From positions 6,442-70,441 of IMG/VR virus record IMGVR_UViG_3300037512_001384: DNA of 64,000 bases. One strand, written 5' to 3'. This stretch comes from a virus. Both the position numbers and the translations under genes were made by a program. The notes under the pieces were generated by a model, which searched no databases, had not been told where the DNA came from, and was given only the letters and a program-made list of their open reading frames with translations. Positions 571-58,261 of the stretch are shown piece after piece. The stretch's first letter is position 1. Each line of letters begins with the position of its first letter.

Positions 571-2658
571 ATGAACAAATACAGCAGCTACACTCCCGAT
601 GAGATGGATAACCTCCTGTCAGGTTATCTCATCGATTCATGGTCATACAGTAAGGTCAACACCTTCGCCCGTAACGAGAAGCAGTTTGAGAAGAACTTCG
701 TCTATCTCGAACCGGACAAACGCAGTATAAGCTCCATTGCCGGTAACGCCTATCACGAGGCGTTGAGGGTTTTCTTCATGGGCTACAATGAAGGTGCGAA
801 GAAGCCGGATCTTGTGGAGTTGTCAACGGTGGCATATAACTACATAGATGATGTTGACGCTAACACATGGAAGCTCAGTGATACTTATCCTTCCGTTGAC
901 CAGGCAAGAGAGCAATGTATCAAGATTGTCACTCTTCTGATTCAGAACTTCTGCGGCGAGTATGGTATCTATACCGACCATATAGCTGAGGTTCTGTCCG
1001 TCGAGGTCAAGGAAGAGTCTCTGGTGGTCTGCAACGGTGTCGATATCCCATTACCTCTGCATTATATTGCAGACCTTGTGATACGCACAAAGGACGGAAA
1101 GGTTGTCATCATAGACCATAAGAGCAAAAGCGCCTATACCGGTGACGATGAGGTCTCTCTTGTGCATGGTCAGCAGGCTATCGCTTACGTACTCGGATAT
1201 GAGCAGCATGACGAGAAGGATGACCGCCATGTAGATGAGGTCTGGTTCATCGAGAATAAGTATTCCAAGAACAAGAACGGCAGCGAGCAGCTTCGTCTGC
1301 ACCGTTTCGTGATGGATGAGGACTCACGCAAATTGCATGAGTATTATCTCTATCAGCCTCTTCGTCGTATGATAGAAGCTGTGGCTGATCCTGACTACAT
1401 CTACACAATCAACGCATCTGACAACCTTGCTGACAAGGCAGAGCTTTACGAGTTCTCGGCACGCACTCTGATTGCAGAGGTTGATGACTTCCCCAATATC
1501 CCGGAAAGGAAGAAGCCTCTGATAGAGAAACGTCAGCGTAAAATCAAGGACTCCAGCATCGCGATGATTTCACCGCGAGTCATACGTTCATTCAGAAAGA
1601 ATGCAGCATCGTTTATTACTTTCGACTATTCGCATAGCAATATGACAAACAAAGAAAAAATCGAACATAAGTTCCGTACCTTCGGCAAACAGGTTCAGGT
1701 AAGCCATGAGATAGAAGGATTCTCATGTAACACCTATCTGTGTGAGGTGGCGGCAGGCATACCCATCGCTTCTCTTAAGACATACGCGAAGGATATCGCT
1801 TACGCTCTTGATGTTCCGTCAGTACGTGTCGCTCAGGACCTGGTGGTACATGAAGGACGTTCTTATCTTTCCATAGAAGTGAGTAAGAAGAGTTCCGAGA
1901 TACTGGCATGGGATGCCAAATATCTTGAGGGTCATCGCATACCTCTCGGACTTGACAACTTCAAAGAGCCGGTAATATGGGATTTGGAGAACCATTCCAC
2001 TCCGCACATGCTTGTCTGTGGTGCTACCGGTTCCGGAAAATCCGTTCTTATCCGCTCTACTATCGCCTATGCCCTTCTCGCCAAGATGCGCGTTATCATC
2101 ATGGATCCCAAATACGAGTTCTCTGCATTCTCAGACAGATGTGAGGTTCATTCGGATATCGCAGACATAGAGAAACGCATGAAGGAACTTGTTGAGGAGA
2201 TGCAAGCCCGCAAGGGTACTTTCGGCGGTCTCACACTGATAGTATTCGATGAGTTCGCTGATGCAGTTTCATCGGCTCGTTCCGGCAAGGAGCTTGACAT
2301 CAGAGAGGAAGTGACAGTCGGTGAGTATAAGGATGGCAGACCGAAGAAGGAGTGGATTGTCACAGGACGTGACAAGAGTCTGGAAGAGAACCTGCAGATG
2401 CTCCTGCAGAAAGGTCGTTCTCTTGGTTATCGCATCCTGTCTGCCACACAGAGAGCTTCAGCCAAGGTTATCACAGGTGACGCCAAGGTCAATTTCCCAT
2501 GTATCTGTTGTTTCAGAGTACCCAAGGCTCTTGACAGTAAGGTTGTGATTGATGAGGATGGCGCACAAGCCCTTGCCGGTAACGGTGACGGACTGTTCAA
2601 GTCGCCTGAGTACATGGATCGTCTCGTGCGATTCCAGGGATTCTTCTATAAAGGATAA
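571..2658 (+). CDS. PD-(D/E)XK (RecB/Cas4-like) nuclease fused to an FtsK/HerA-type P-loop ATPase
   Basis: N-half: IADLV..VVIIDHKSK followed by HGQQAIAYVLGY (D..DxK plus QxxxY). C-half: Walker A CGATGSGKS, Walker B LIVFDEFAD, FtsK signature SATQRASAKVITGDAKVNFP. Starts 4 nt after the recT stop. Confidence 0.7.
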   Translation: MNKYSSYTPDEMDNLLSGYLIDSWSYSKVNTFARNEKQFEKNFVYLEPDKRSISSIAGNAYHEALRVFFMGYNEGAKKPDLVELSTVAYNYIDDVDANTWKLSDTYPSVDQAREQCIKIVTLLIQNFCGEYGIYTDHIAEVLSVEVKEESLVVCNGVDIPLPLHYIADLVIRTKDGKVVIIDHKSKSAYTGDDEVSLVHGQQAIAYVLGYEQHDEKDDRHVDEVWFIENKYSKNKNGSEQLRLHRFVMDEDSRKLHEYYLYQPLRRMIEAVADPDYIYTINASDNLADKAELYEFSARTLIAEVDDFPNIPERKKPLIEKRQRKIKDSSIAMISPRVIRSFRKNAASFITFDYSHSNMTNKEKIEHKFRTFGKQVQVSHEIEGFSCNTYLCEVAAGIPIASLKTYAKDIAYALDVPSVRVAQDLVVHEGRSYLSIEVSKKSSEILAWDAKYLEGHRIPLGLDNFKEPVIWDLENHSTPHMLVCGATGSGKSVLIRSTIAYALLAKMRVIIMDPKYEFSAFSDRCEVHSDIADIEKRMKELVEEMQARKGTFGGLTLIVFDEFADAVSSARSGKELDIREEVTVGEYKDGRPKKEWIVTGRDKSLEENLQMLLQKGRSLGYRILSATQRASAKVITGDAKVNFPCICCFRVPKALDSKVVIDEDGAQALAGNGDGLFKSPEYMDRLVRFQGFFYKG

Positions 2659-3424: not shown

Positions 3425-4258
3425 ATGAAAGATTCATTTGTTTTTCATAAAGACTGGTACTTAGCCTTAAAAGGGTTAGACGTTCAAGACAAAGTTGAGG
3501 TCTATGAAGCTATAATGAGCAAAATATTTGATGGTGTAGATAAGAAACTTTCGCCTGTTGCACAGATGGCAATGAATTTTATTTCGCCACAAATTGAAAG
3601 GGATGTTGAACGTTATAATTCCATTTGTGAGCAACGCAAACTATTTGGTAGTAAGGGCGGTATAGCAAAAGCTACCAAAAGCTACCAAAAGGTAGCAAAA
3701 GGTAGCAAAAGCAAGCAAAAGGTGGCAAGTGTAGCTGATAATGATAATAATATATCATCTTCTACTAACGTAGAATCTGATAATGATATTATAGATATAG
3801 AAGTAAAAGATAAATCTTTTCCTTCTAAGAAAAAAAATAAATTATTTATACCGCCTACATTAAACGAAGTAGAGGCGTATGTAAAAGAAAAAGGCTATCA
3901 TTTCAGCGCCAAGGCATTCTTTGACTATTACGAAGCGGATGACTGGCATTACGGCAAAGGCAGTAATAGAACAAAGATATCGAACTGGAAGCGCTGTTGT
4001 GCCACATGGGAGGAGCGGCGTACTACAAGTAATAATATACCTCGTGAACCCGCATCGTTGTTTGATAACCATACTCCCGAACCGGAAGACGAACAGACTT
4101 TATTACAGAAAGCATACGAAGAACTGAACGACACCCAGGAGGCTGAGATATACGGAATGGTCCCCTATGAGTTTCACATGCTGAATGAGAACGGCAAGAA
4201 ATATTGGCGCGAAGTTTACAAGGAAAAGATGCTTGATTGGATCAAGAGCAACAGATGA
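3425..4258 (+). CDS. putative replication initiator / replisome organizer
   Basis: The N-terminal domain (FHKDWY..RKLFGSKGG) and the W-rich C-terminal block (FFDYYEADDWHYGKG..ISNWKRCCATWEERR) resemble phage replisome-organizer proteins. The central linker is encoded by iteron-like repeats plus an AT-rich tract. Confidence 0.45.
   Translation: MKDSFVFHKDWYLALKGLDVQDKVEVYEAIMSKIFDGVDKKLSPVAQMAMNFISPQIERDVERYNSICEQRKLFGSKGGIAKATKSYQKVAKGSKSKQKVASVADNDNNISSSTNVESDNDIIDIEVKDKSFPSKKKNKLFIPPTLNEVEAYVKEKGYHFSAKAFFDYYEADDWHYGKGSNRTKISNWKRCCATWEERRTTSNNIPREPASLFDNHTPEPEDEQTLLQKAYEELNDTQEAEIYGMVPYEFHMLNENGKKYWREVYKEKMLDWIKSNR
3661..3730. repeat. seven phased 10-bp units each ending AAAA (iteron-like array inside the organizer gene)
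   Basis: tatagcaaaa gctaccaaaa gctaccaaaa ggtagcaaaa ggtagcaaaa gcaagcaaaa ggtggcaagt. GCTACC and GGTAGC are inverted relative to each other. Confidence 0.85.
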
Positions 4259-6150: not shown

Positions 6151-6688
6151 TCAAGACATACTTTATAGGCATATTATATTTCTTAGAGCCATGCATTATG
6201 GTATCCTTGCGACCGTCATAACCGGTTGCTATCTCCTGTATGGCTTCATGGTCAAAGAAATACTTCTCCTGTTTTGACATCAGGAATATATATTCATGTG
6301 CCTTCGTACAGCGGTCTTTGATGCTTTCGGGCTGCGGATTCAGCTTATGCCAGATGATGTCATTTCTCAGACGGAATCCGATACGGTCTCTTAGTGCGAA
6401 AGCCGCCATCCAGGGAATACCGATAAGACTTTTTGCATTGTCATAGCTATCTCCGAGGTTCAGCCAGAGCGTTCCTTCCGGTTTAAGAACGCGAAACACT
6501 TCCGTGAATACTTCGGTGAGTCTGTCGATATACTCTTCTGGTGACTTCTCCAGACCTATCTGACCGTCAATACCGTAGTCTCGCAGATTGAAATATGGCG
6601 GTGAGGTGACACAGCAATCAACGCAGTTGTCAGGAAGGCTTTTCATTCCGGTGAGGCAGTCTTCATTGAAAACTTTGTTGATTTCCAT
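6041..6688 (-). CDS. N-terminal half of a beta-class N4/N6 DNA methyltransferase (SPPY motif IV), separated from its 3' half by inversion
   Basis: MEINKVFNEDCL..DCCVTSPPYFNLRDY..LWLNLGDSY..NDIIWHK..HEYIFLMSK. Methyltransferase similarity stops at the repeat (6163-6175). The rest of the ORF is read-through antisense to the primase-helicase gene. Confidence 0.75.
   Translation of the reverse strand: MEINKVFNEDCLTGMKSLPDNCVDCCVTSPPYFNLRDYGIDGQIGLEKSPEEYIDRLTEVFTEVFRVLKPEGTLWLNLGDSYDNAKSLIGIPWMAAFALRDRIGFRLRNDIIWHKLNPQPESIKDRCTKAHEYIFLMSKQEKYFFDHEAIQEIATGYDGRKDTIMHGSKKYNMPIKYVLIRTGYLRLSAHQRVFHYVVFPAAPLQNPIPADSAAS
6163..6175. repeat. left inverted repeat of invertible segment 1 (TTATAGGCATATT)
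   Basis: Perfect reverse complement of 6692-6704. An imperfect extension brings it to about 20 bp. Confidence 0.9.
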
Positions 6689-9292: not shown

Positions 9293-9363
9293 GGTCGTAT
9301 GGCGTAATGGTAGCGCAACAGACTTTGGTTCTGTGTGTCCCGGTTCGATTCCAGGTACGACTA
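9293..9363 (+). tRNA. tRNA-Gln (anticodon UUG)
   Basis: Manual cloverleaf: acceptor GGTCGTA/TACGACT (G1-U72), anticodon stem ACAGA/TCTGT, loop CTTTGGT, T arm CCCGG-TTCGATT-CCAGG (one C-A mismatch). No encoded CCA. Confidence 0.8.
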
Positions 9364-26627: not shown

Positions 26628-26666
26628 TGTGGGGAGTAGCTGTCATGCTGCTCCCCACTTTTTTTT
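26628..26666 (+). terminator. rho-independent terminator between convergent blocks
   Basis: GTGGGGAG..CTCCCCAC stem followed by eight T. Confidence 0.8.
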
Positions 26667-26667
26667 G

Positions 26668-27510
26668 TTATGTGCCGGTGAAGAACCCCATACCGCTCAA
26701 GTCGAGATTATCGGCATCCACGCAGATGTAACGTGATGTCATGTTCTCGTTCTTGTTGTGGTTCATCAGGGCGCAGATGACGGCACGCGGCACACCGCGC
26801 AGAGTCAGGTTGGTGGCGAAGGATCTCCGGGCCGTATGACTCCCGACATACTCGTACTTGGGTCGCGTCTGCGTCTTACCGTGATAGAATATCTTGGTTT
26901 CCTGACTGATACCGCATCGGCGACAGATACGTTTGATGACATCGTTATAAACGGCTCTGTTATGTTCGCCGGTGGGCTTGTACTGCAGGTAACGCATGAG
27001 GTTGCGATGTATCGGTATGGAGCTCTCCACCTTCGTCTTCTGACTCACATAACACAGTCTGCCGTCAATGATGTTATGCTCGGTGAATGACTTGACATCG
27101 GACGTCCTGGCACCGCAGTAGCACTCGATGAGGAAAGCCGCCTTGATGTCCCGTTCCGTGTCATTATGGGGAACATATCGTTCGATACGCTCTATCTCCT
27201 CTTCCGTGAGATAGACGTTCTGTGACGGCACTCTCTTAGCCTTCAATTCCTTCCCGGGATTCTTACAGGGGAATAAATTCTCATCCAGATAAGCGGAAAG
27301 GAAAGCCTTCAATACGGCGAGATAGGTACATGCCGTATTACCGGCTACGTTGTCACAGATATTATCCCTCATCTCGGACAGGTTAAGCGTCGTGAGGTCG
27401 CTCCACTGCACCTCCTGAACGCCTATCGCATCACGCATATACCGAAGGATATGCGCATAGCTGGGTTGTCTTCTGACAAACTCCTGCTCAAAACTTAAAA
27501 TTCCGTTCAT
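26668..27510 (-). CDS. tyrosine recombinase (phage integrase family)
   Basis: CGARTSDV (Arg I), HTARRSFATNL (HxxR), MNHN.. and the terminal ..MTSRYICVD (catalytic Tyr). Confidence 0.85.
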   Translation of the reverse strand: MNGILSFEQEFVRRQPSYAHILRYMRDAIGVQEVQWSDLTTLNLSEMRDNICDNVAGNTACTYLAVLKAFLSAYLDENLFPCKNPGKELKAKRVPSQNVYLTEEEIERIERYVPHNDTERDIKAAFLIECYCGARTSDVKSFTEHNIIDGRLCYVSQKTKVESSIPIHRNLMRYLQYKPTGEHNRAVYNDVIKRICRRCGISQETKIFYHGKTQTRPKYEYVGSHTARRSFATNLTLRGVPRAVICALMNHNKNENMTSRYICVDADNLDLSGMGFFTGT

Positions 27511-27696
27511 ATCATTTGGTTTTTATTGATTACGACGAGTGAAGCCGGACAATATCCCATCGTCCGGCTCCTGATTAACCTAAATACTTATGTGGTAAAA
27601 ACGTACACACGAAAGTATGTGTAAACATGTTGACCACACTGCTACGACTATGGTAATCTTGCTGCCGGAGGACGTTTTACCGTCATCCGGCATTGT

Positions 27697-29073
27697 TTAC
27701 AGGCGCAGTGTACCCGCTCTTGCCGCCTCACAGCGTCTCAGCACCTCCTTACGGTCACGTATGAGTATCCTGGCTCTCATATCCATACCTTCGCCCGTGG
27801 GCTTATCCAGGACACCTATCGCAACCATCGTGAGGAAGTCCTCGATTGCCATACGGCGTGTAAGAAGGAAGGGGAACATACCGAAGTTACGTGGCGTCAA
27901 CTCTGTCCTGCCTTGTGACTCCTGCAGGAAGAGGCATTCGGGTTGTCCCTTGATAGTAACGGTGACACATGGCGCATCCTCCTGTCCCGGGATGTCAAGC
28001 ACGGAACCGGTAAATGTACCTCTGCAGACAAGGTTGAGCAGTATAGCATCCTCGATGTACTCCGTATCTGCATATCCGCATTGTACGCGCACGTCATCAA
28101 TGCCGTCTGAGTAGAGCATATCACCCTTACCCATCAGGTCCTCGGCACCGGTATGGTCGAGGATGACACGCGAATCAATACCCGATGCGACGCGGAACGC
28201 GATACGTACCGGGAAGTTCGCCTTGATGTTTCCTGTCACGATGGTCGCCGACGGACGTTGCGTGGCTATGATCATGTGGATACCGACGGCACGGGCTTTC
28301 TGTGCGATACGGCATATCATACGCTCCATATCCTTCCCGGCTGTCATAATAAGGTCGGCATACTCGTCTATGACCACGATGCAGTAACGCATGTAGTCTT
28401 CACCGTTGAGCTTGTCATTATACTCTTTGATGTTACGTACTCCTTTCTGCGAGAGAAGGGTGTAACGGTACTCCATGAGGTTAATGACACGCTGCAGGAT
28501 AGCGACAGCATCCTCTGTGGTCGTGGCTATGTCATCGGCGAGATACTTGTGCCAGAGAGGAGCGTAGATGTTGAGCTCAACCTGTTTGGGGTCGATGAGC
28601 ACCAACTGCATCTCTTCCGGTGTGCGCTTGCTCATCAGTGAGAGCAGCAGCATGTTCAGGCATACCGACTTACCTTGACCGGTCGCACCGGCAATAAGCA
28701 GGTGCGGCATCTGTGTGAGGTCACGGATGAAGAGTTCTCCCTGTACCGTCTTGCCTATGGCGCATGGAAGTGCCATCCTGCAGGACTCGTAATCGACATG
28801 ATGCAGAACGCTGTCCATGTGTACTATCTGACGTTGGAAGTTGGGAACCTCAATGCCAATCGTACCGCCTGCGAGCGGTCCCATGATGCGTACCGACTCC
28901 GTACCGACCGCCAAGGCAAACTCATCAGCGAGTCTGCGTACACGTGTCATATTCACACCCATATCCGGTCTGAACTCATACAGGGTGACGCTGGGTCCTT
29001 TCGTGACTCTCCAGCTCAGCGGTTCAATCTTATGAACCCTGAGCACCTGTTCTAACTTGTAAGTGTAATCCAT
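27697..29073 (-). CDS. FtsK/SpoIIIE-family DNA translocase-like ATPase
   Basis: Walker A AGATGQGKS, Walker B VVIDEYADL, ATQRPSATIVTGNIKANFP..GAEDLMGKGDML. Start set at MDYTYK by the cassette. Confidence 0.85.
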   Translation of the reverse strand: MDYTYKLEQVLRVHKIEPLSWRVTKGPSVTLYEFRPDMGVNMTRVRRLADEFALAVGTESVRIMGPLAGGTIGIEVPNFQRQIVHMDSVLHHVDYESCRMALPCAIGKTVQGELFIRDLTQMPHLLIAGATGQGKSVCLNMLLLSLMSKRTPEEMQLVLIDPKQVELNIYAPLWHKYLADDIATTTEDAVAILQRVINLMEYRYTLLSQKGVRNIKEYNDKLNGEDYMRYCIVVIDEYADLIMTAGKDMERMICRIAQKARAVGIHMIIATQRPSATIVTGNIKANFPVRIAFRVASGIDSRVILDHTGAEDLMGKGDMLYSDGIDDVRVQCGYADTEYIEDAILLNLVCRGTFTGSVLDIPGQEDAPCVTVTIKGQPECLFLQESQGRTELTPRNFGMFPFLLTRRMAIEDFLTMVAIGVLDKPTGEGMDMRARILIRDRKEVLRRCEAARAGTLRL

Positions 29074-29157
29074 AATGATTGTTTGAGTTATTATTGGCGG
29101 AGCAGCTGATGTCACTCAATCAGCTCCAGGACGTGGGATTTGTCCTTTGGAAAAGTG

Positions 29158-29245
29158 ATGCGCACCCATGTCAATGAGTACGCATCTGTTTAACTCTTTA
29201 AATACTACAACTATGCGCCTCACGGCGTTCGTATGTAATAATTAG
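29158..29245 (+). promoter_or_regulatory. solo cassette in the opposite (plus) orientation, followed by a 10-codon mini-ORF
   Basis: Hairpin ATGCGCAC..GTACGCAT, then CTGTTTAACTCTTTAAATACTACAACTATG (near-perfect consensus), then MRLTAFVCNN and a stop. Confidence 0.55.
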
Positions 29246-29320
29246 CACAAAGATAAGGATTCGCCCTTATCCTTGTATGGCGATGTTAATCCTTAACATA
29301 GTTAATGTACGGATTTAACA

Positions 29321-29593
29321 TTAGTAGTGTTGCTGAACGAGGTTGTCGATAGAATCAAGCACCTCATCCACGTCACGTATCACTCCCATCTTACCGAGAT
29401 CTTCCACGATACATTTAAGTCTGACGTAGTTCTTAACCCCCACACGTGTGGCTCCTACGCCGTTTTTTACGAATGACGGGCGTATGGAATGGAAGTGCTT
29501 ACGGAAGAACTGTTCAAGCGACATGAAGCCCACTGTCTTGCTCTTCTGTTCCCTGTTGCTGAAATACTCAGCGGCTAATTTCCTCAGTCTCAT
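29321..29593 (-). CDS. hypothetical protein
   Basis: ORF-track ORF with a weak cassette upstream. Confidence 0.5.
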   Translation of the reverse strand: MRLRKLAAEYFSNREQKSKTVGFMSLEQFFRKHFHSIRPSFVKNGVGATRVGVKNYVRLKCIVEDLGKMGVIRDVDEVLDSIDNLVQQHY

Positions 29594-29779: not shown

Positions 29780-29844
29780 TGCGAATCATTTTAGTTAGAC
29801 ATAATGGCGATTATAGCTGCGTTTCCACAGCTATAACCTTCTTG

Positions 29845-30435
29845 TTACTCGGCGATGTAATCATTCCAGAGAGCTTGTGCCATGATCTCCGCTGCAATCT
29901 CGTCCTCGGGAAGTTGGTTGAACATATCCAATGTGTTGCCATGAAGATCCTCGTCCCCGGCTTCCAAAACATCTCTAATCTCAGAGATGACATCGAGCAT
30001 ATCATCTTTGAGCTGTTGAAAATCCTCAATAGGATTACCGTCGCTGTCATAACAATGGTCGTTCGGATCATTAAGGTTAAGTAGGATGTCGCCCGTTAAG
30101 TTGATAAAGTGATATTCATGATACCCGGGTACGAACGAATACTCTGTCTTGGCGTACTGTTCGCGCAGTGATTTGAGAATGAATATCAGCTCTTCTACCG
30201 GATGCTGAATAACGTATTCGCCTTCTTCTTGGTAGTCTTCAAAGAGCAGGATGATACCGTTATCGATTGGATTTAGGTCCACACCCTGCAGCAATACCTC
30301 GCCGTCATGGTCGTCAATCATGATAGGTGTCTCGAACGTCCACGCAAATCCCATTTTCTTCATCTCCTTGCGGATGTCAGCGATTACCTGCTCTTTGAGC
30401 TCCTTTACTTTTTCGTTGTAGTTTTTTGTTTCCAT
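29845..30435 (-). CDS. hypothetical, strongly acidic protein
   Basis: Cassette-defined start. D/E-rich throughout. Confidence 0.55.
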   Translation of the reverse strand: METKNYNEKVKELKEQVIADIRKEMKKMGFAWTFETPIMIDDHDGEVLLQGVDLNPIDNGIILLFEDYQEEGEYVIQHPVEELIFILKSLREQYAKTEYSFVPGYHEYHFINLTGDILLNLNDPNDHCYDSDGNPIEDFQQLKDDMLDVISEIRDVLEAGDEDLHGNTLDMFNQLPEDEIAAEIMAQALWNDYIAE

Positions 30436-30977: not shown

Positions 30978-31202
30978 TGTAGTATGATTTAAGAGTTAAA
31001 CAATTGTTGCCGTCACAAAAACTTTCATATCTTTGTGACGTGGAAACTAAAACGGATGTTCAGTCCGTATGTCGGGACTTACCTAAACCCAAGACTTATA
31101 GTCAGGGTGAAGTGCCACACTCTCAGGGAAATTGTAATGCGCATAATTACAATATTTAAAGAGTTAGTTTCCGTCCTCAGCTTAGGGCGCATGAGGGGCC
31201 TA

Positions 31203-31235
31203 AATGGATGTCTCGCTGGCATCCATTCTTTTTTT
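31203..31235 (+). terminator. plus-strand rho-independent terminator inside the leftward block
   Basis: AATGGATG..CATCCATT stem followed by C and seven T on the plus strand only. Confidence 0.55.
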
Positions 31236-31665
31236 ATGACCTGATTACACGGGCGTAGGAGTGAGTCGGATAGAATATTTCCTCTGCATTCCATGCGCTC
31301 GCCAAATCGTGCAAGTCCTCGAAGCAATCCACGTAATCCGAACCGGCATCGTACATCTCCAATATCTCCTTGTCGGATATTTCATTAAACTCTTTCTCGT
31401 CAAGGATGTCAGCATTGCTATCCAAGATATAGATGCGCTCACGAGATAATGGTTCCTTCATCAGACAACAGAGTAATGCGTCATTGAGCAGATTGGGGAG
31501 TTCTTCCTCGAAATAACCATCCGCGTAATTATCGATTACCTTTCCCTTGAGATTGCAGATGTCAAGGCGGTACGTGTTGTCTTCAGCTTTGACGCTTAGC
31601 TTATAACCGCGTTCTTTTAATTGTTCGTTGGCGAACTTCAGCAGTTTCTTGTTTTCTTTTTCCAT
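31234..31665 (-). CDS. hypothetical acidic protein
   Basis: Cassette-defined start. Confidence 0.55.
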   Translation of the reverse strand: MEKENKKLLKFANEQLKERGYKLSVKAEDNTYRLDICNLKGKVIDNYADGYFEEELPNLLNDALLCCLMKEPLSRERIYILDSNADILDEKEFNEISDKEILEMYDAGSDYVDCFEDLHDLASAWNAEEIFYPTHSYARVIRS

Positions 31666-44515: not shown

Positions 44516-45100
44516 TTAATCAACTTTGCAAACTCTTGTAAAACCAAATTTTGCCAACAGTTCAGGAGTTAAAAGACTTGCGTCTATTCCAAGACTTGCG
44601 GCCAGACTTGCGGACGCTCTTTGCAATTGCTTTTCATTTGCCTGCTTGCGTGCAGTCCGTGCAACTTCATCCCTGAATATATCGTAACTATTAAAACAAG
44701 TACGGAGGCCAGCGGCCGAAATTGTAGTTTTACGGTATGGAGTTAAACCGCTTTCCGTATTTCCTATTGTGTTTGTATCCGCTTCACTTTGAAAAGTGAT
44801 TGTAAAGTTGTTTGTTGCTTTCCTCACTTTTGCAAACACCCTCAAAAACAGATATTTTTCTGTTGCCATAAAAGGAGCGGAACGGAAAGAATCCGCAAAA
44901 CAAGCGGATAATTTATTAAGGTTTTCGGCCTCAATACTTGCGTTTTCGTTGTCAATACTTGCAAGTAGTTTGCTAATTGTGGTTTTACTTGCGTTTGCTT
45001 TTCTCAATTCCTTAACTGAAATACTTGTTACCAGTGTTTCAAGTTCAACGGTTGAAATACCTGAATAAAGGTAATCAACAAGATTTTTGTTTACTTGCAT
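44516..45100 (-). CDS. hypothetical protein (first gene of the leftward block)
   Basis: Cassette-defined start. Has its own terminator. Confidence 0.55.
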   Translation of the reverse strand: MQVNKNLVDYLYSGISTVELETLVTSISVKELRKANASKTTISKLLASIDNENASIEAENLNKLSACFADSFRSAPFMATEKYLFLRVFAKVRKATNNFTITFQSEADTNTIGNTESGLTPYRKTTISAAGLRTCFNSYDIFRDEVARTARKQANEKQLQRASASLAASLGIDASLLTPELLAKFGFTRVCKVD

Positions 45101-45763
45101 AGTTGTAATATTTAAGAGTTAATAAAATAGTGTCAAAGTGCGCATATCGGAAACACCTTTCCGACACTATAAAATTACAAAAATAATCCGATATAATGCC
45201 AATATTTGTATATTTAACTTATGTTTAATTGATTGATATATAGTAAGTTATAAAGAAAGATTATACAATATTGTAGTATATATACAGGTTATTATTGTAT
45301 ATATACATAGATAGTTAATTATATAATAACTTAAATATATAGATATTTAACGGAAAAATACTTACAAATTGATCCCAGAGTTTCGGCAATAGGTGCAAAC
45401 CGATGAACACACAACCAACACGGCAATAAAGCGGAAAAGTTGCAAGGAGCGACAAACCCCACAACGGACCGACAACGCGACCGCGAGCGGATACAATACA
45501 ATTATAATGTATTTGTTTTGCAGGAAAAACCGCGCGAATACCCCACCCAGAGAAGGCTACCCCCGACCCCCTAAATACGTTTGTATTGCGTGGGGGTCAG
45601 CCCCCGCCGAGATTTTCAATTTTTCATTTTTCGTTTTTACTTTTCGTATGCGGAACATGTTTCTGTGTATCTCAATCGGTGTTTCTGGTCTATATATATC
45701 AGTCCTGATGCCGTGTATCCTTGTCTGCGCGTTGATTATGGTCTGATACATGGGTATCTATGG

Positions 45764-45845
45764 AAAAAGGGTCAAAAAAGCCTGAAAAAGCCCCAAAATA
45801 CCCTGAAAATAGGGGTCAAAAAGAGGTGCTTTTCCTCAAAAAAGG
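45764..45845. repeat. helically phased A-tracts (predicted intrinsic bend)
   Basis: A-runs start at 45764, 45774, 45785, 45795, 45806, 45818 and 45838, spaced 10-12 bp. GGGTCAAAAAG occurs twice. Confidence 0.75.
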
Positions 45846-45865
45846 CTGTTTTTGGCGTATGAATG

Positions 45866-45982
45866 TACCAAAAATGGAATTTGATGTACCAAAATAGAGA
45901 TTACCAAAAAAAAACGTAAGTTATTGAAATATAGGGTAGATATTTGTCATGCAATGAACCAAATGAACCAAATGTACCAAAT
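45866..45982 (+). repeat. six (G/T)(T/A)ACCAAA(A/T) repeats upstream of the D5-like helicase gene
   Basis: gtaccaaaaa 45866, gtaccaaaat 45887, ttaccaaaaa 45901, gaaccaaat 45956, gaaccaaat 45965, gtaccaaat 45974. Confidence 0.8.
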
Positions 45983-46025
45983 TTCGATACCCAGGTATTG
46001 GTTTGTTTAGTTATTGTTTTTATAT

Positions 46026-55359: not shown

Positions 55360-58107
55360 TTAATTATAGTGTGGTGACAGCTTACGCACTGTCCTTACCC
55401 GGTTTCCTTTCTGGAGCCAGTTGGGTACGGTAGCCTGCGTATGCTTGATGTCGAAAATCTCACGCATAAACAGAGCCTCGAAGAAGTCCGGTGAGTGACC
55501 TACGACGGCTTTGTTCTTCATCTGTTCCTTGTGAATAAGACACCATCCCTTATCGGCTTTTGACATATCCTGCTTGACGCATTTACGTTCAAGCTGCAGG
55601 ATGGCATATAATGTCTTGATCTCCTTTCCTATCTTGTATTTGCGCTGCAGCAGTGTCGGCTCGATGCTCCATCCGGACTGCTGTGTGCGCTCCGCGAACT
55701 TGTAAGCGCACTGTGACTTCTTGTTGTCATAGAGATGCTTGTCCTTGACGGACACAGCCTCCTGGTTGTTGAACGGTACGGCACGCGGGAACGCACCTTT
55801 GAGCACCTGTCCCATTCCGTTGAGGTCATAGGCGAAGTTCTCCTCCAGCACACCCCACTCACGCAGTTTCTCTTTCAGCATGGATGCGGTGGTGAAGGGG
55901 TCACGACGGCATACGAAGACATCGGCGACATGCCATCCTATCCACAGCCATGTGACGCAGTTGTCACCGCCGTCACCTGCTACGTCACAGGTGGCGCGAC
56001 GTATCTTGTCACCTACCATCTGTGAGTTCTTGAAGCAGGAATCGAGATGGAACGGCTGTATCATGTCATCACCCATCTTGATGATGTCCCAGTTACCGTC
56101 GAACTCACGGGCCCTGATTTCAGGAGGTTGGTTGAGCAGTGATGCTATATAACCCGGGTCGTTCTTGAGCAGCGCCTTGTTGTCCTTGAGGTTAGCCTTG
56201 ACGAAAGTGACCGATTTGACGAAGAAGGAGGTCTTGGTGTAGCCGTACTGCTCCCACTCGGGGTCCCATGCGTCATCAATCATCTCCTTACACTGCTCAT
56301 ATACCTCTTCGGGTGTGTCACCCCAGATGATGTTATCCACGCTATCATCCGGCATGTAGCAGTAACGCAGCACGCCGTCACGCTCCGGTATGGCGAACCC
56401 TTTGCGTTCCGGGTGTTTCTTACCGTCGAGATAGACGGTATCCTCCTTGCCTATCCACCAGTCCACGAACTTACGCAGCCATGACAGAGGGTCGGGGTTG
56501 CAGGTGCCGAGGATACGAGAATGGACACCGACGGTGTTACGGTTACAGGTCATCAGGAACTTGAACATCTCGAACGGCATCTGCGGCAGCTCGTCGATAC
56601 CGATATACGCGAACTGCTGTCCACGGAACTTTCTGTCGAAGTCCGCCATCGGCATGTCGTAAATGGTCAGTCCCAGCTTGGCTCCGGAACGGAAGTTCCA
56701 GGTCATATCATCCTTGGACTTGTTGTATCGTCCGAGTCCGGAGAACCAACGCTGGCTTTCGTTGATGATATTATCGAAGTCATCCTTGTTCCTTCTGAAG
56801 ATGTAACCATTAAAGTGCTTGTTCTTGATGTCATACATCGGTTCCATGAGCATTGTCACGGTATTGTGGTTGATGGTGTATGCATCGGTCAGATACAGGT
56901 GGTCACGTCCGGTGACGGTGATGCAACGGCACTGCTGCTTGGTATGATCCTTCGTTATGTACTGGATTTTCTTGGACAGCATGTTGGTGCATTGCGGGTT
57001 GGTCGGACATTCGGCGTTGACCCTGACAGTCCGGTCCGCTCCGCTGCCTTTCCTGAACAGTTCCTTGTCGTTCGGCGCCTTCATGGTGACGCGCCACCAT
57101 CCGAGGTAATTGGGTTCATCCTCTACCTGATGCACACGCGCCCATATACCCAGCGAGCGTGCGAGTTCAGCTATATCATCTATGAAATCCTTGTTCGGGA
57201 GTGTGATTATCGGACAGTTATGTCTTGTACGTCCGGAGCGTGCCATGATGCCAAGCAGGTATGACCATCTCACGGACACCGCTGCAGTCTTATACTCATG
57301 CGGTATGCGACAGGGCTCTTCCTGTCTGCAGCATGTTATCCTGCGTCTGTTTTCGTCGCTGATGCCGCGAATATAGAAGAAGCCGTCTTCTGCGTTGAGG
57401 TTGACCTTATAACCCCAAGCGCGGTATCTGACACGCATGAACTTGTCATCATCGAGGCGGATTCCCTTCTTGCCGAACTCCCATGTCCCCTTGCTGCTAA
57501 GAACGCCGAGCAGATACGGATGTATAGGCATATCGATGGCGGTCTTCTGCTCGTTCATCTCCACCTTGCCACAGAGCGGTATCTCCACATACTGTGTCTT
57601 ACCCCTACGCAGTGACATAGGGAACGGACGGTCTATGACGTAGTTGTCGAATATCTCACGTGCGGTCATCTCATGGTATATGTCACCTGCACCCACGCGA
57701 GCCCAGAACCGGTGGTTGTTCATGCATTTGAGTGTCGTGCCGTCATCGAAGTGTAGCGTGTATATCGTCTGCTCACCCTGCTCGAATATCTCACTGACCT
57801 TCTGAACGCCGTTGTAGGGCGTACATATAAGGTCGCCCACCTCCAGGTCGCCCATCCTGCGGAATCCCGAGGGTGTGGCTACCATAGTGCTGTAGGGGTT
57901 GGCTTTGCCGCCGCCCCTGTTGCCGCCGAACACCGTGATGTCCGCGACATTACCGAGTCCGAACTCCTGAGCGCCATCCTGGACGATGAAATATTTGTTT
58001 TTCTTGTCCGTTTCGGCTATCGTCCGAATATGCGGTAAAAAATCGTGACTAAAGATGTTCTTTCCATCCTTAGTACGTAACGCTGTCAAGCATGTTGAAT
58101 CCTGCAT
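55360..58107 (-). CDS. terL: terminase large subunit interrupted by an intein in the Walker A motif
   Basis: FGGNRGGGK | intein | TVTM.. restores GxxxxGKT. Downstream are IGIDE (Walker B) and LGTCNPD. ATG at 58107 is preferred over GTG at 58152. Confidence 0.85.
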   Translation of the reverse strand: MQDSTCLTALRTKDGKNIFSHDFLPHIRTIAETDKKNKYFIVQDGAQEFGLGNVADITVFGGNRGGGKANPYSTMVATPSGFRRMGDLEVGDLICTPYNGVQKVSEIFEQGEQTIYTLHFDDGTTLKCMNNHRFWARVGAGDIYHEMTAREIFDNYVIDRPFPMSLRRGKTQYVEIPLCGKVEMNEQKTAIDMPIHPYLLGVLSSKGTWEFGKKGIRLDDDKFMRVRYRAWGYKVNLNAEDGFFYIRGISDENRRRITCCRQEEPCRIPHEYKTAAVSVRWSYLLGIMARSGRTRHNCPIITLPNKDFIDDIAELARSLGIWARVHQVEDEPNYLGWWRVTMKAPNDKELFRKGSGADRTVRVNAECPTNPQCTNMLSKKIQYITKDHTKQQCRCITVTGRDHLYLTDAYTINHNTVTMLMEPMYDIKNKHFNGYIFRRNKDDFDNIINESQRWFSGLGRYNKSKDDMTWNFRSGAKLGLTIYDMPMADFDRKFRGQQFAYIGIDELPQMPFEMFKFLMTCNRNTVGVHSRILGTCNPDPLSWLRKFVDWWIGKEDTVYLDGKKHPERKGFAIPERDGVLRYCYMPDDSVDNIIWGDTPEEVYEQCKEMIDDAWDPEWEQYGYTKTSFFVKSVTFVKANLKDNKALLKNDPGYIASLLNQPPEIRAREFDGNWDIIKMGDDMIQPFHLDSCFKNSQMVGDKIRRATCDVAGDGGDNCVTWLWIGWHVADVFVCRRDPFTTASMLKEKLREWGVLEENFAYDLNGMGQVLKGAFPRAVPFNNQEAVSVKDKHLYDNKKSQCAYKFAERTQQSGWSIEPTLLQRKYKIGKEIKTLYAILQLERKCVKQDMSKADKGWCLIHKEQMKNKAVVGHSPDFFEALFMREIFDIKHTQATVPNWLQKGNRVRTVRKLSPHYN
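56863..57903 (-). mobile_element. 347-aa intein with a degenerate LAGLIDADG domain, Ala at position 1, ends HN, +1 Thr
   Basis: Block A ANPYSTMVATPSGFRRMGDL, block B LKCMNNHRFW, LAGLIDADG-like YLLGVLSSKG and YLLGIMARSG, block F/G CRCITVTGRDHLYLTDAYTINHN|T. Confidence 0.75.
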
Positions 58108-58261
58108 ATTTCTTATACATTTTTGACAAAGATATTTCAGAACAAGTGTCACATACGGTGTATTTCATTGGTAAAATGAAAGATTACCAAAATAAAAGCG
58201 CTTAGGAAAACACCAATCACTATAATTTGGCGAAAAATCTTTACAAATTATAGCAATTGGT

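Follow-up and report, generated by a model that had tools for sequence, protein, structure and literature searches.

In the 64,000-nucleotide DNA stretch analysed here (positions 6,442 to 70,441 of IMG/VR virus record IMGVR_UViG_3300037512_001384; hereafter the window), we identified a reversed copy (29187-29215) of the sequence cassette that precedes the start codons of about 30 leftward genes, located within the predicted 5' leader of an FtsK/SpoIIIE-like gene and the Xer-like tyrosine recombinase gene behind it. The element is an uncatalogued conserved leader RNA feature in a clade of Bacteroidota phages. The cassette that is visible on the plus strand is embedded in a predicted RNA structure of the minus strand, and a regulatory antisense role of the element is likely. 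The specific reading that we favour, tentatively and with slightly less than even confidence, is that the leader carries an antisense copy of the initiation region shared by the early genes and that it opposes the early block.

The cassette of the ~30 leftward genes consists of T(A/T)TGTTTAAC(T/C)CTTAAA followed by 13-18 nt that end in TACAA(C/T)T and abut the ATG. About 25 leftward intergenic regions (29.6-45.1 kb, minus strand) share a layout of stop codon, hairpin, 2-8 nt, cassette and ATG with a total length of ~60-65 nt, each unit reading as a hairpin, TTGTTTAAC(T/C)CTTAAA, ~10 nt and ATG. We built a two-block position weight matrix (PWM) from the minus-strand cassette copies, with 20 shuffles as control and leave-one-out scoring for the ranking. 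The plus-strand copy scores 32.5 bits with this PWM, compared to shuffle maxima of 14-22 bits; under leave-one-out scoring it reaches 33.2 bits and ranks 4 of 32 (top copy, 36.3 bits), and is thus not the best-consensus copy that an earlier note on this DNA took it for. All other copies above 23 bits are on the minus strand between 29 and 45.1 kb, and 29187-29215 is the sole strong plus-strand copy, with a motif-to-ATG spacing (18 nt) inside the family range. The arrangement described in that note is present in the sequence: a hairpin (29157-29186) formed by the inverted repeat ATGCGCAC (29158-29165) / GTACGCAT (29178-29185), then TGTTTAAC..TACAACTATG (29187-29215; CTGTTTAACTCTTTAAATACTACAACTATG at 29186-29215), then an 11-codon frame including the stop (29213-29245), all located in the 247-nt gap between the FtsK-like gene and a 90-amino-acid (aa) gene (29321-29593, minus strand). 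The reversed cassette comprises block A (TGTTTAACTCTTTAAA, 29187-29202) and block B with the ATG (TACTACAACTATG, 29203-29215); read on the minus strand, we refer to it as the anti-cassette.

The same note had assigned the hairpin to the plus-strand cassette, and of this assignment the inverted repeat stands but the strand does not. On the minus strand the hairpin (H1, 29157-29186) is a perfect 13-bp stem, including two G.U pairs, with a UGAC loop, whereas the plus-strand version contains one C.A mismatch. In an alignment of seven sequences in the FtsK sense, 95.6% of the cells are paired, 18 of them are G.U, both-side changes occur in 9 of the 13 pairs, and none of 500 shuffles reaches the score; in the reverse-complement alignment, 75.8% of the cells are paired and there is no G.U. 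The covariation, together with the occurrence of all G.U cells in the FtsK sense, indicates that the hairpin belongs to the minus strand and that the plus cassette is without a hairpin of its own. The reversed cassette deviates from its family in this respect: the ordinary intergenic hairpins of the leftward block (10-13 bp, each unique, without a U-tract) are more stable as RNA in the sense of the gene in 20 of 24 cases, whereas the hairpin beside the plus copy favours the opposite strand.

H1 is part of a predicted structured leader of ~170 nt upstream of the FtsK-like gene (29074-29243, minus strand; minimum free energy (MFE) -57.1 kcal/mol, z = -4.3). In all eight sequences compared, this leader folds more stably in the FtsK sense than in antisense. 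From 5' to 3', this leader would consist of hairpin H0 (29241 to 29203), anti-block A (29202 to 29187), H1 (29186 to 29157), hairpins H2 (29129-29145) and H3 (29099-29127), and a CAA-rich start region (29071-29097). In H0 (29203-29241, minus strand), the left arm (29231-29241) pairs with anti-block B and encloses a CGCC-GUGA-GGCG hairpin (29216-29227) with a GNRA tetraloop. The loop of this small 5'-proximal hairpin is of the GNRA type (GUGA, GAGA or GCAA) only in the minus sense, and is so in 6 of 7 lineages. Anti-block A is needed for no predicted helix. A covariance search of 29074-29277 on both strands against Rfam returned no overlapping family.

About 11 related lineages have reversed cassettes ahead of FtsK, the recombinase or both (FtsK identity 46-59%; sequences from relatives carry L numbers below), and these cassettes follow the flavour of their own lineage. 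Cassettes within one genome share one such flavour, namely TGTTTAAC in the window and L010, TGTTTCAC in L011, and GT(C/T)TCAC in L026. At the position that it occupies in the window, the FtsK gap, the reversed cassette was found in L010, L011/L027, L026, L035 (FtsK 55% identical), L037 (51%) and L013/L014, that is, in lineages with FtsK only 51-59% identical. The earlier note had proposed that absence from close relatives would discount the element; in the homologous phages the reversed cassette is conserved. Its suggestion of an empty cassette left by recombination does not fit a sequence that is kept at this level of FtsK divergence and tracks the flavour of its own lineage, which is not what a recent scar would look like. 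Between the window and L010, hardly any change is seen in the 45 nt that surround the cassette, in contrast to the neighbouring H1 stem, where 5 of 13 pairs differ. Block A varies from TTTAAA to TTGAA in two of nine near-identical contigs and in L010. Of the ~14 reversed copies, ~9 preserve block B and the ATG, and in 5 the ATG is replaced by ACG, ACA or ATA while block A stays.

The module of anti-cassette and hairpin can also occur more than once per operon. The FtsK leaders of L011 (5797-6000), L027 (1283-1487) and L026 (2849-3039) contain two tandem modules, the second without the complement of the ATG, and open with a small 5' hairpin, GCCGAU-NNNN-GUCGGU. A covariance model of the module finds it between FtsK and the recombinase in L031, L035, L036, L037, L039 and L044, and it was seen by eye upstream of the recombinase in L028 and L029. 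The window itself has a second, degenerate anti-cassette with hairpin just upstream of the recombinase start (27543-27592, minus strand; CATAAGTATTTAGGTTAATCAGG at 27570-27592, hairpin at 27543-27569). Upstream of the recombinase, reversed and forward cassettes stand back-to-back around a hairpin.

Bacteroidota sigma-A promoters have the consensus -33 TTTG / -7 TAnnTTTG. An exact match to the -7 element, TATCTTTG, lies on the minus strand at 29255 to 29248, and TTATCTTTG is kept in five lineages (the window, L010, L013, L011/L027 and L026), with 22-33 nt separating it from the anti-cassette; in L026, this conservation cannot be put down to a hairpin. The motif term for the Bacteroidota -7 element occurs in PMC6847099. 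TAnnTTTG is not enriched in the window (22 found, 30 expected), and intergenic minus-strand -7 boxes occur at just two places in the leftward block, 29255 to 29248 and the start of the block (45185 to 45178). The full two-element -33/-7 pattern was not found in the window, and TTTG or TTG at the -33 distance, 17-23 nt upstream of the -7 box, is present only in L027 and L010. The -7 box overlaps a terminator-like hairpin (29246-29277, minus strand; 14 pairs, tail CTAATTATTA) that closes the upstream unit of the 90-aa gene. From these sequence features, we infer that the FtsK/recombinase mRNA probably starts near 29242 and has a leader of ~170 nt.

Whether this leader acts as antisense RNA depends on what the cassettes are. 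We consider it somewhat more probable that the cassette is a translation-initiation region than that it is a promoter, because its distance to the ATG is fixed, host-type boxes occur at unit starts and not inside cassettes (which contain no TAnnTTTG), the hairpins lack U-tracts, and block A resembles the leader of T7 gene 10. The lack of U-tracts and the optimisation of the hairpins for gene-sense RNA fit one long mRNA with one start signal per cistron. The promoter reading of the cassette draws on L035 and L037, in which two genes have TTAACTTTGCAAAA, a true -7 box, at the position of block A relative to the ATG, and on the flavour, which shifts in concert in each genome as if read by a phage-encoded factor. 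Literature searches for the cassette motif in Bacteroides phages found no report, a sigma-70 promoter scan of the window gave chance-level results only, and ATGCGCA is not enriched as a repeated operator word (9 found, 9.3 expected). If the cassettes are initiation regions, the plus copy would have no transcript to serve, because no plus-strand -7 box was found upstream of it and the rightward block terminates at a strong terminator (26629-26658), and what is conserved would then be its complement in the FtsK leader.

Duplexes predicted between the anti-cassette and the 33 leftward start regions have a mean energy of -20.7 kcal/mol, compared to -8.6 for shuffled sequences, and 20 of the 33 fall between -20 and -34 kcal/mol with the start codon spanned. 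The strongest pairing is predicted for a 21-codon open reading frame (ORF) at 31144 (-34.0), and the weakest for FtsK (-7.4) and the recombinase (-4.2). In 3 of 4 lineages, the anti-cassette pairs best with the start regions of its own genome. The leader thus holds an embedded sequence complementary to the initiation regions of other phage genes, and it may pair with them in trans in vivo.

Under the antisense reading, a host-type promoter (TATCTTTG, -7) would drive an FtsK/recombinase transcript whose ~170-nt leader holds the anti-cassette (29215 to 29187) between the conserved hairpins H0, with its GNRA tetraloop, and H1. The mRNA would in this way carry the antisense of the sequence that precedes the start codons of ~30 early genes, this anti-initiation region would pair with the early mRNAs, and expression of FtsK and the recombinase would be inversely tied to the early programme, while the CAA-rich start regions of these two genes would escape the pairing. 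Such an arrangement might serve as RNA-level immunity or as a switch, comparable to the leader-embedded c4 RNA of P1. The earlier note had included a small-RNA gene among its options; the regulatory-RNA role survives in spirit, but with the conserved structured RNA assigned to the minus strand instead of the plus strand. A far-reaching version, in which the leader is a 'master antisense' that collectively silences ~30 early genes and provides immunity or a lysis-lysogeny switch in a clade of ~100-kb Bacteroidota phages, and in which the copy in L013/L014 could be an anti-phage decoy RNA captured by bacteria, we regard as improbable.

Several observations weigh against the antisense reading. 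High complementarity to many start regions follows automatically from the anti-cassette being a near-consensus copy, and its tracking of the lineage flavour could result from gene conversion among cassettes, with no function needed. Most lineages retain the complement of the ATG and block B even though the leader fold does not require it. The predicted accessibility of anti-block A is average (0.32-0.66, compared to a leader mean of 0.42-0.49) and does not separate the models. L035 and L037 keep the anti-cassette without an obvious -7 box, the TTAACTTTGCAAAA boxes of these two lineages favour promoters, and the transcription start of the FtsK leader is placed by inference from motifs. The nature of the cassettes, promoter or initiation region, is what decides the mechanism.

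The alternative that survives best, and which we consider possible though doubtful, treats the cassette as a compact phage promoter followed by a short leader and the plus copy as an antisense promoter facing the FtsK promoter, their start sites separated by ~40 bp. With the early programme running, the plus copy would fire into the FtsK promoter and lower FtsK/recombinase expression by transcriptional interference and through a short 5'-overlapping antisense RNA, and the mini-ORF behind it would be incidental. The plus copy is indeed among the top-ranked, the orientation-specific block B and ATG persist in ~9 of 14 reversed copies, genuine -7 boxes replace block A in L035/L037, and the back-to-back cassettes upstream of the recombinase, grouped round a hairpin, look like divergent promoters; a second gap (30978-31233, below) has the same layout, with a cassette driving a conserved 21-aa ORF and facing a conserved -7 box. 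Conversely, the cassettes contain no TAnnTTTG, yet this phage group uses TAnnTTTG at its unit starts; the ATG is lost in five reversed copies that retain block A; the hairpin next to the cassette and the sequence downstream of it are optimised for the opposite strand; no good terminator for the plus strand lies close by; and the intergenic hairpins are without U-tracts, so that a promoter for each gene is not required.

It is less probable, and in our view unlikely, that the element is an evolutionary relic, i.e., a cassette unit that was inverted long ago and has been kept by its embedding in the leader structure and by gene conversion with the ~30 other cassettes, the cassette-like sequence itself being functionless. 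The pairing of anti-block B in H0, the natural variants of block A in two of the nine near-identical contigs and in L010, and the single flavour per genome, which suggests concerted evolution, would all be expected of a relic, as would the second gap module, whose flanking genes in L011 differ from those in the window and which thus points to cassette-mediated shuffling. Against this, the reversed cassette is retained in ~11 lineages at 46-59% FtsK identity, in one case isolated in a bacterial contig without nearby cassettes; the 45 nt around it are nearly invariant between the window and L010 across which H1 changed at 5 of 13 pairs; and anti-block A is not required by any predicted helix.

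Two further explanations are very unlikely. In the first, the anti-cassette would be a translational attenuator in cis that pairs with the start region of the downstream gene and hides its start codon. In all of eight recombinase leaders (that of the window and seven from related phages), the MFE structure has the anti-cassette base-paired to the start region of the recombinase, including CAUAAU:AUUAUG, with duplexes of -5 to -14 kcal/mol; however, the anti-cassette pairs with the start of FtsK itself no better than shuffled sequences do in 7 of 7 lineages, and FtsK is the second-weakest of the 33 partners in the window. In the second, the inverted repeat would be a DNA site of the dif, attP or inverton type for the neighbouring tyrosine recombinase. 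It adjoins an FtsK/Xer-like gene pair, and one arm, GGTGCGCAT, presumably resembles the XerC arm of Escherichia coli dif. The arms, however, vary among lineages but covary as RNA, with 18 G.U on one strand and none on the other; the spacer is 4 nt and not 6-8; and no prophage junction was seen at the site. An inverton beside the recombinase was likewise rejected, as the orientation is the same in the nine near-identical contigs, which come from different samples, and in all lineages, with no sign of inversion.

The 10-codon ORF behind the plus-strand cassette (29213-29245, plus strand), which reads ATG CGC CTC ACG GCG TTC GTA TGT AAT AAT TAG (MRLTAFVCNN*), is not a conserved coding sequence. 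The frames at the same position behind reversed cassettes are unrelated among lineages, with lengths from 6 to 95 codons: MRLTAFRYK in L010, MNVSRRESY in L013, MNFEF.. in L011 (95 codons; 14 in its close relative L027), MKPIH.. in L026 (77 codons) and MIGPS.. in L035 (29 codons). The codons common to the window and L010 (CGC CTC ACG GCG) are the complement of the CGCC-GUGA-GGCG hairpin, and a frameshift separates the two sequences after codon 6. The start codon falls within H0, and the ORF region as a whole corresponds to the GNRA hairpin and the left arm of H0 on the minus strand. That MRLTAFVCNN is the product of a genuine micropeptide gene, another option of the earlier note, is thus highly improbable, even though the ATG stands behind a top-scoring cassette and the frame has 9-10 codons in three lineages, as its sequence and length are unconstrained, its conserved codons coincide with a hairpin of the other strand, and the ATG has been lost in 5 of ~14 reversed copies. 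Judged from its sequence, the 10-codon ORF is not a gene and should not be annotated as one. A type I toxin-antitoxin locus at 29213-29245 was rejected as well, since the ORF is unconstrained and does not encode a conserved small hydrophobic toxin.

A second gap in the leftward block, 30978-31233, mirrors the layout at 29.2 kb. It contains a minus-strand cassette (ATG at 31144) with a 21-aa hydrophobic ORF, MRITISLRVWHFTLTISLGFR, which is conserved as MRVTITIRIWHFAISLGVSFR in L011 and has the same length in L011/L012. A plus-strand -7 box, TATCTTTGTG (31028-31035), faces this cassette and is also conserved; from it, a plus-strand RNA of ~196 nt (z = -4.3) is predicted to extend to the terminator at 31203-31235. 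The unit of the 21-aa ORF (31079-31166, minus strand) and the opposing unit (31028-31236, plus strand) form a candidate type I toxin-antitoxin-like or cis-antisense locus. The arrangement in which a host-type promoter faces a cassette thus recurs in this phage. The earlier note had treated 31203-31235 as the only plus-strand terminator inside the leftward block and as the possible end of a 2-kb antisense unit beginning at the reversed cassette. It is the strongest, but three weaker matches exist (29446-29463, 29811-29836 and 30199-30220), and the 2-kb unit finds no support: the terminator has a conserved -7 box of its own 170 nt upstream and is more readily accounted for as the place where the local plus-strand RNA ends.

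The window derives from a large phage-like genome in which plus-strand genes, including a primase-helicase, methylases and a second FtsK-like gene, occupy 1-26.6 kb, and a dense block of small leftward genes runs from 45.1 kb down to 26.7 kb. The last genes of this block are the FtsK/SpoIIIE-like translocase gene (27697-29073, minus strand; 458 aa, Pfam FtsK_SpoIIIE E = 1e-49) and the Xer-like tyrosine recombinase gene (26668-27510, minus strand; 280 aa). To the right of an AT-rich control region (45.1-46.0 kb) are a D5-like primase, a portal, a terminase with a putative intein and a capsid gene. The closest cultured relatives of the portal are all Bacteroidota phages (LoVEphage and phages of Phocaeicola, Parabacteroides, Porphyromonas, Riemerella and Cellulophaga), and the genes of the window are without Shine-Dalgarno sequences. 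Nine near-identical contigs from different samples have the same arrangement as the window. More distant phages (FtsK 46-59% identical) retain the gene order of small gene, gap, FtsK and recombinase, and the synteny of FtsK and recombinase holds in every phage relative. A near-identity search with 27-32 kb against GenBank phages gave no match, and IMG/VR searched with FtsK as a single-protein query yielded no close relative; a metagenome protein scan, which generic Walker-motif patterns saturate, found no closer relatives, and genome-collection scans with the 27-nt element and with the P0006 protein found neither a host genome nor an integrated copy.

L013 (5640-7720) and L014 contain an FtsK homolog (56% identity) with a complete leader, alone in a bacterial-looking contig that has no recombinase and no other cassettes nearby. 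This leader comprises the -7 box, a GAGA hairpin, a perfect reversed cassette and H1. The module adjoins a type II-C CRISPR array with 46-nt repeats, beyond which are Cas2, Cas1, a Bro-N protein and Cas9; the spacers of this array gave no match to the window or to the loci examined.

The AT-rich control region (45100-46014) lies between the leftward block and the plus-strand primase and has -7 boxes on both strands (45185 to 45178, 45576-45583, and 45976 to 45969). GC content jumps from ~45% to ~53% at this region; despite the jump, relatives place both sides in one phage genome of ~105 kb (L133 and L015 belong to the same UViG). The counterparts of this region ahead of the primase in related phages, recovered with the primase as query, are packed with TAnnTTTG boxes on both strands; a search for them with the first leftward gene as query gave no match. 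Elsewhere in the window, the large terminase ORF (55360-58152, minus strand, 930 aa) has Hint and homing-endonuclease domains preceding Terminase_6N, which suggests that it holds an intein. The second FtsK-like gene (571-2658, plus strand) is fused to an N-terminal PD-(D/E)XK nuclease domain, five tandem 10-nt units (TAGCAAAAGC-like) occur at 3663-3728 within the ORF 3425-4258, and a tRNA gene (9293-9363, plus strand) is the sole match at the Rfam gathering level in the window.

The element is a variant of known antisense or convergent-promoter control and not a new kind of system. P1/P7 c4 RNA and P4 CI RNA are leader-embedded antisense RNAs of phage immunity. As in these phages, the candidate antisense sequence is located in the 5' untranslated part of an operon, is flanked by hairpins and can be matched as the complement to ribosome-binding or initiation regions in other genes of its own phage; the differences are that it complements a motif of ~30 genes and not one or two defined sites, and that it has no sequence or Rfam relationship to c4 or CI. 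Phages of the P2/186 type use face-to-face promoter switches, and sense/antisense pairs that overlap at their 5' ends are a further comparison. The conserved host-type promoter on the minus strand and the candidate cassette promoter on the plus strand, which would likewise face each other with starts ~40 bp apart, resemble such switches; the differences are that the cassette promoter is a candidate only and that no repressor genes flank the element. Ibs/Sib-like loci are type I toxin-antitoxin or cis-antisense small-RNA loci, in which a tiny ORF is faced by a convergent promoter. The gap 30978-31233 fits this type well, whereas at 29213-29245 the ORF is not conserved and the 'antisense RNA' would continue as the FtsK/recombinase mRNA.

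The cassettes also have counterparts among phage signals. 'Promoter-early stem-loop' (PeSL) regulatory cassettes of T4-type phages are treated in PMC2839356 and PMC4122927. PeSL cassettes share with the leftward block a stem-loop and a conserved motif repeated between many small early ORFs without known function, as well as signs of modular shuffling, and the idea of an empty cassette applies to both. The phages described here differ in host phylum, in a motif that stands at a fixed 13-18 nt from the ATG without a host promoter consensus, and in stem-loops without U-tracts. To our knowledge, PeSL cassettes have not been described in an inverted, conserved form within the leader of an operon. 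The 'epsilon' translational enhancer motif of the T7 gene-10 leader is described in PMC9590205. That leader has a 5' hairpin and then TTTGTTTAACTTTAAG, which includes the enhancer, upstream of the ATG, compared to TTGTTTAACTCTTAAA in block A of the cassette: the first 10 nt (TTGTTTAACT) are identical and are followed by TTAA, directly in T7 and after one extra C in the cassette. In T7, a Shine-Dalgarno sequence separates the enhancer from the ATG, whereas these phages have none, and the match is AT-rich, so that it could reflect convergence.

Phage gene regulation in Bacteroidota is almost unexplored, in hosts whose translation initiation is not led by Shine-Dalgarno sequences and whose promoters are unusual. 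The antisense and promoter models both predict antagonism between FtsK/recombinase expression and the cassette-driven programme. Should the cassette be a promoter, the element would be a conserved face-to-face promoter switch controlling a recombinase. If instead the leader acts in antisense on the start signal that the early genes share, a single transcript could oppose the whole early block in a compact manner, and the leader would offer an experimental handle on the function of the cassettes.

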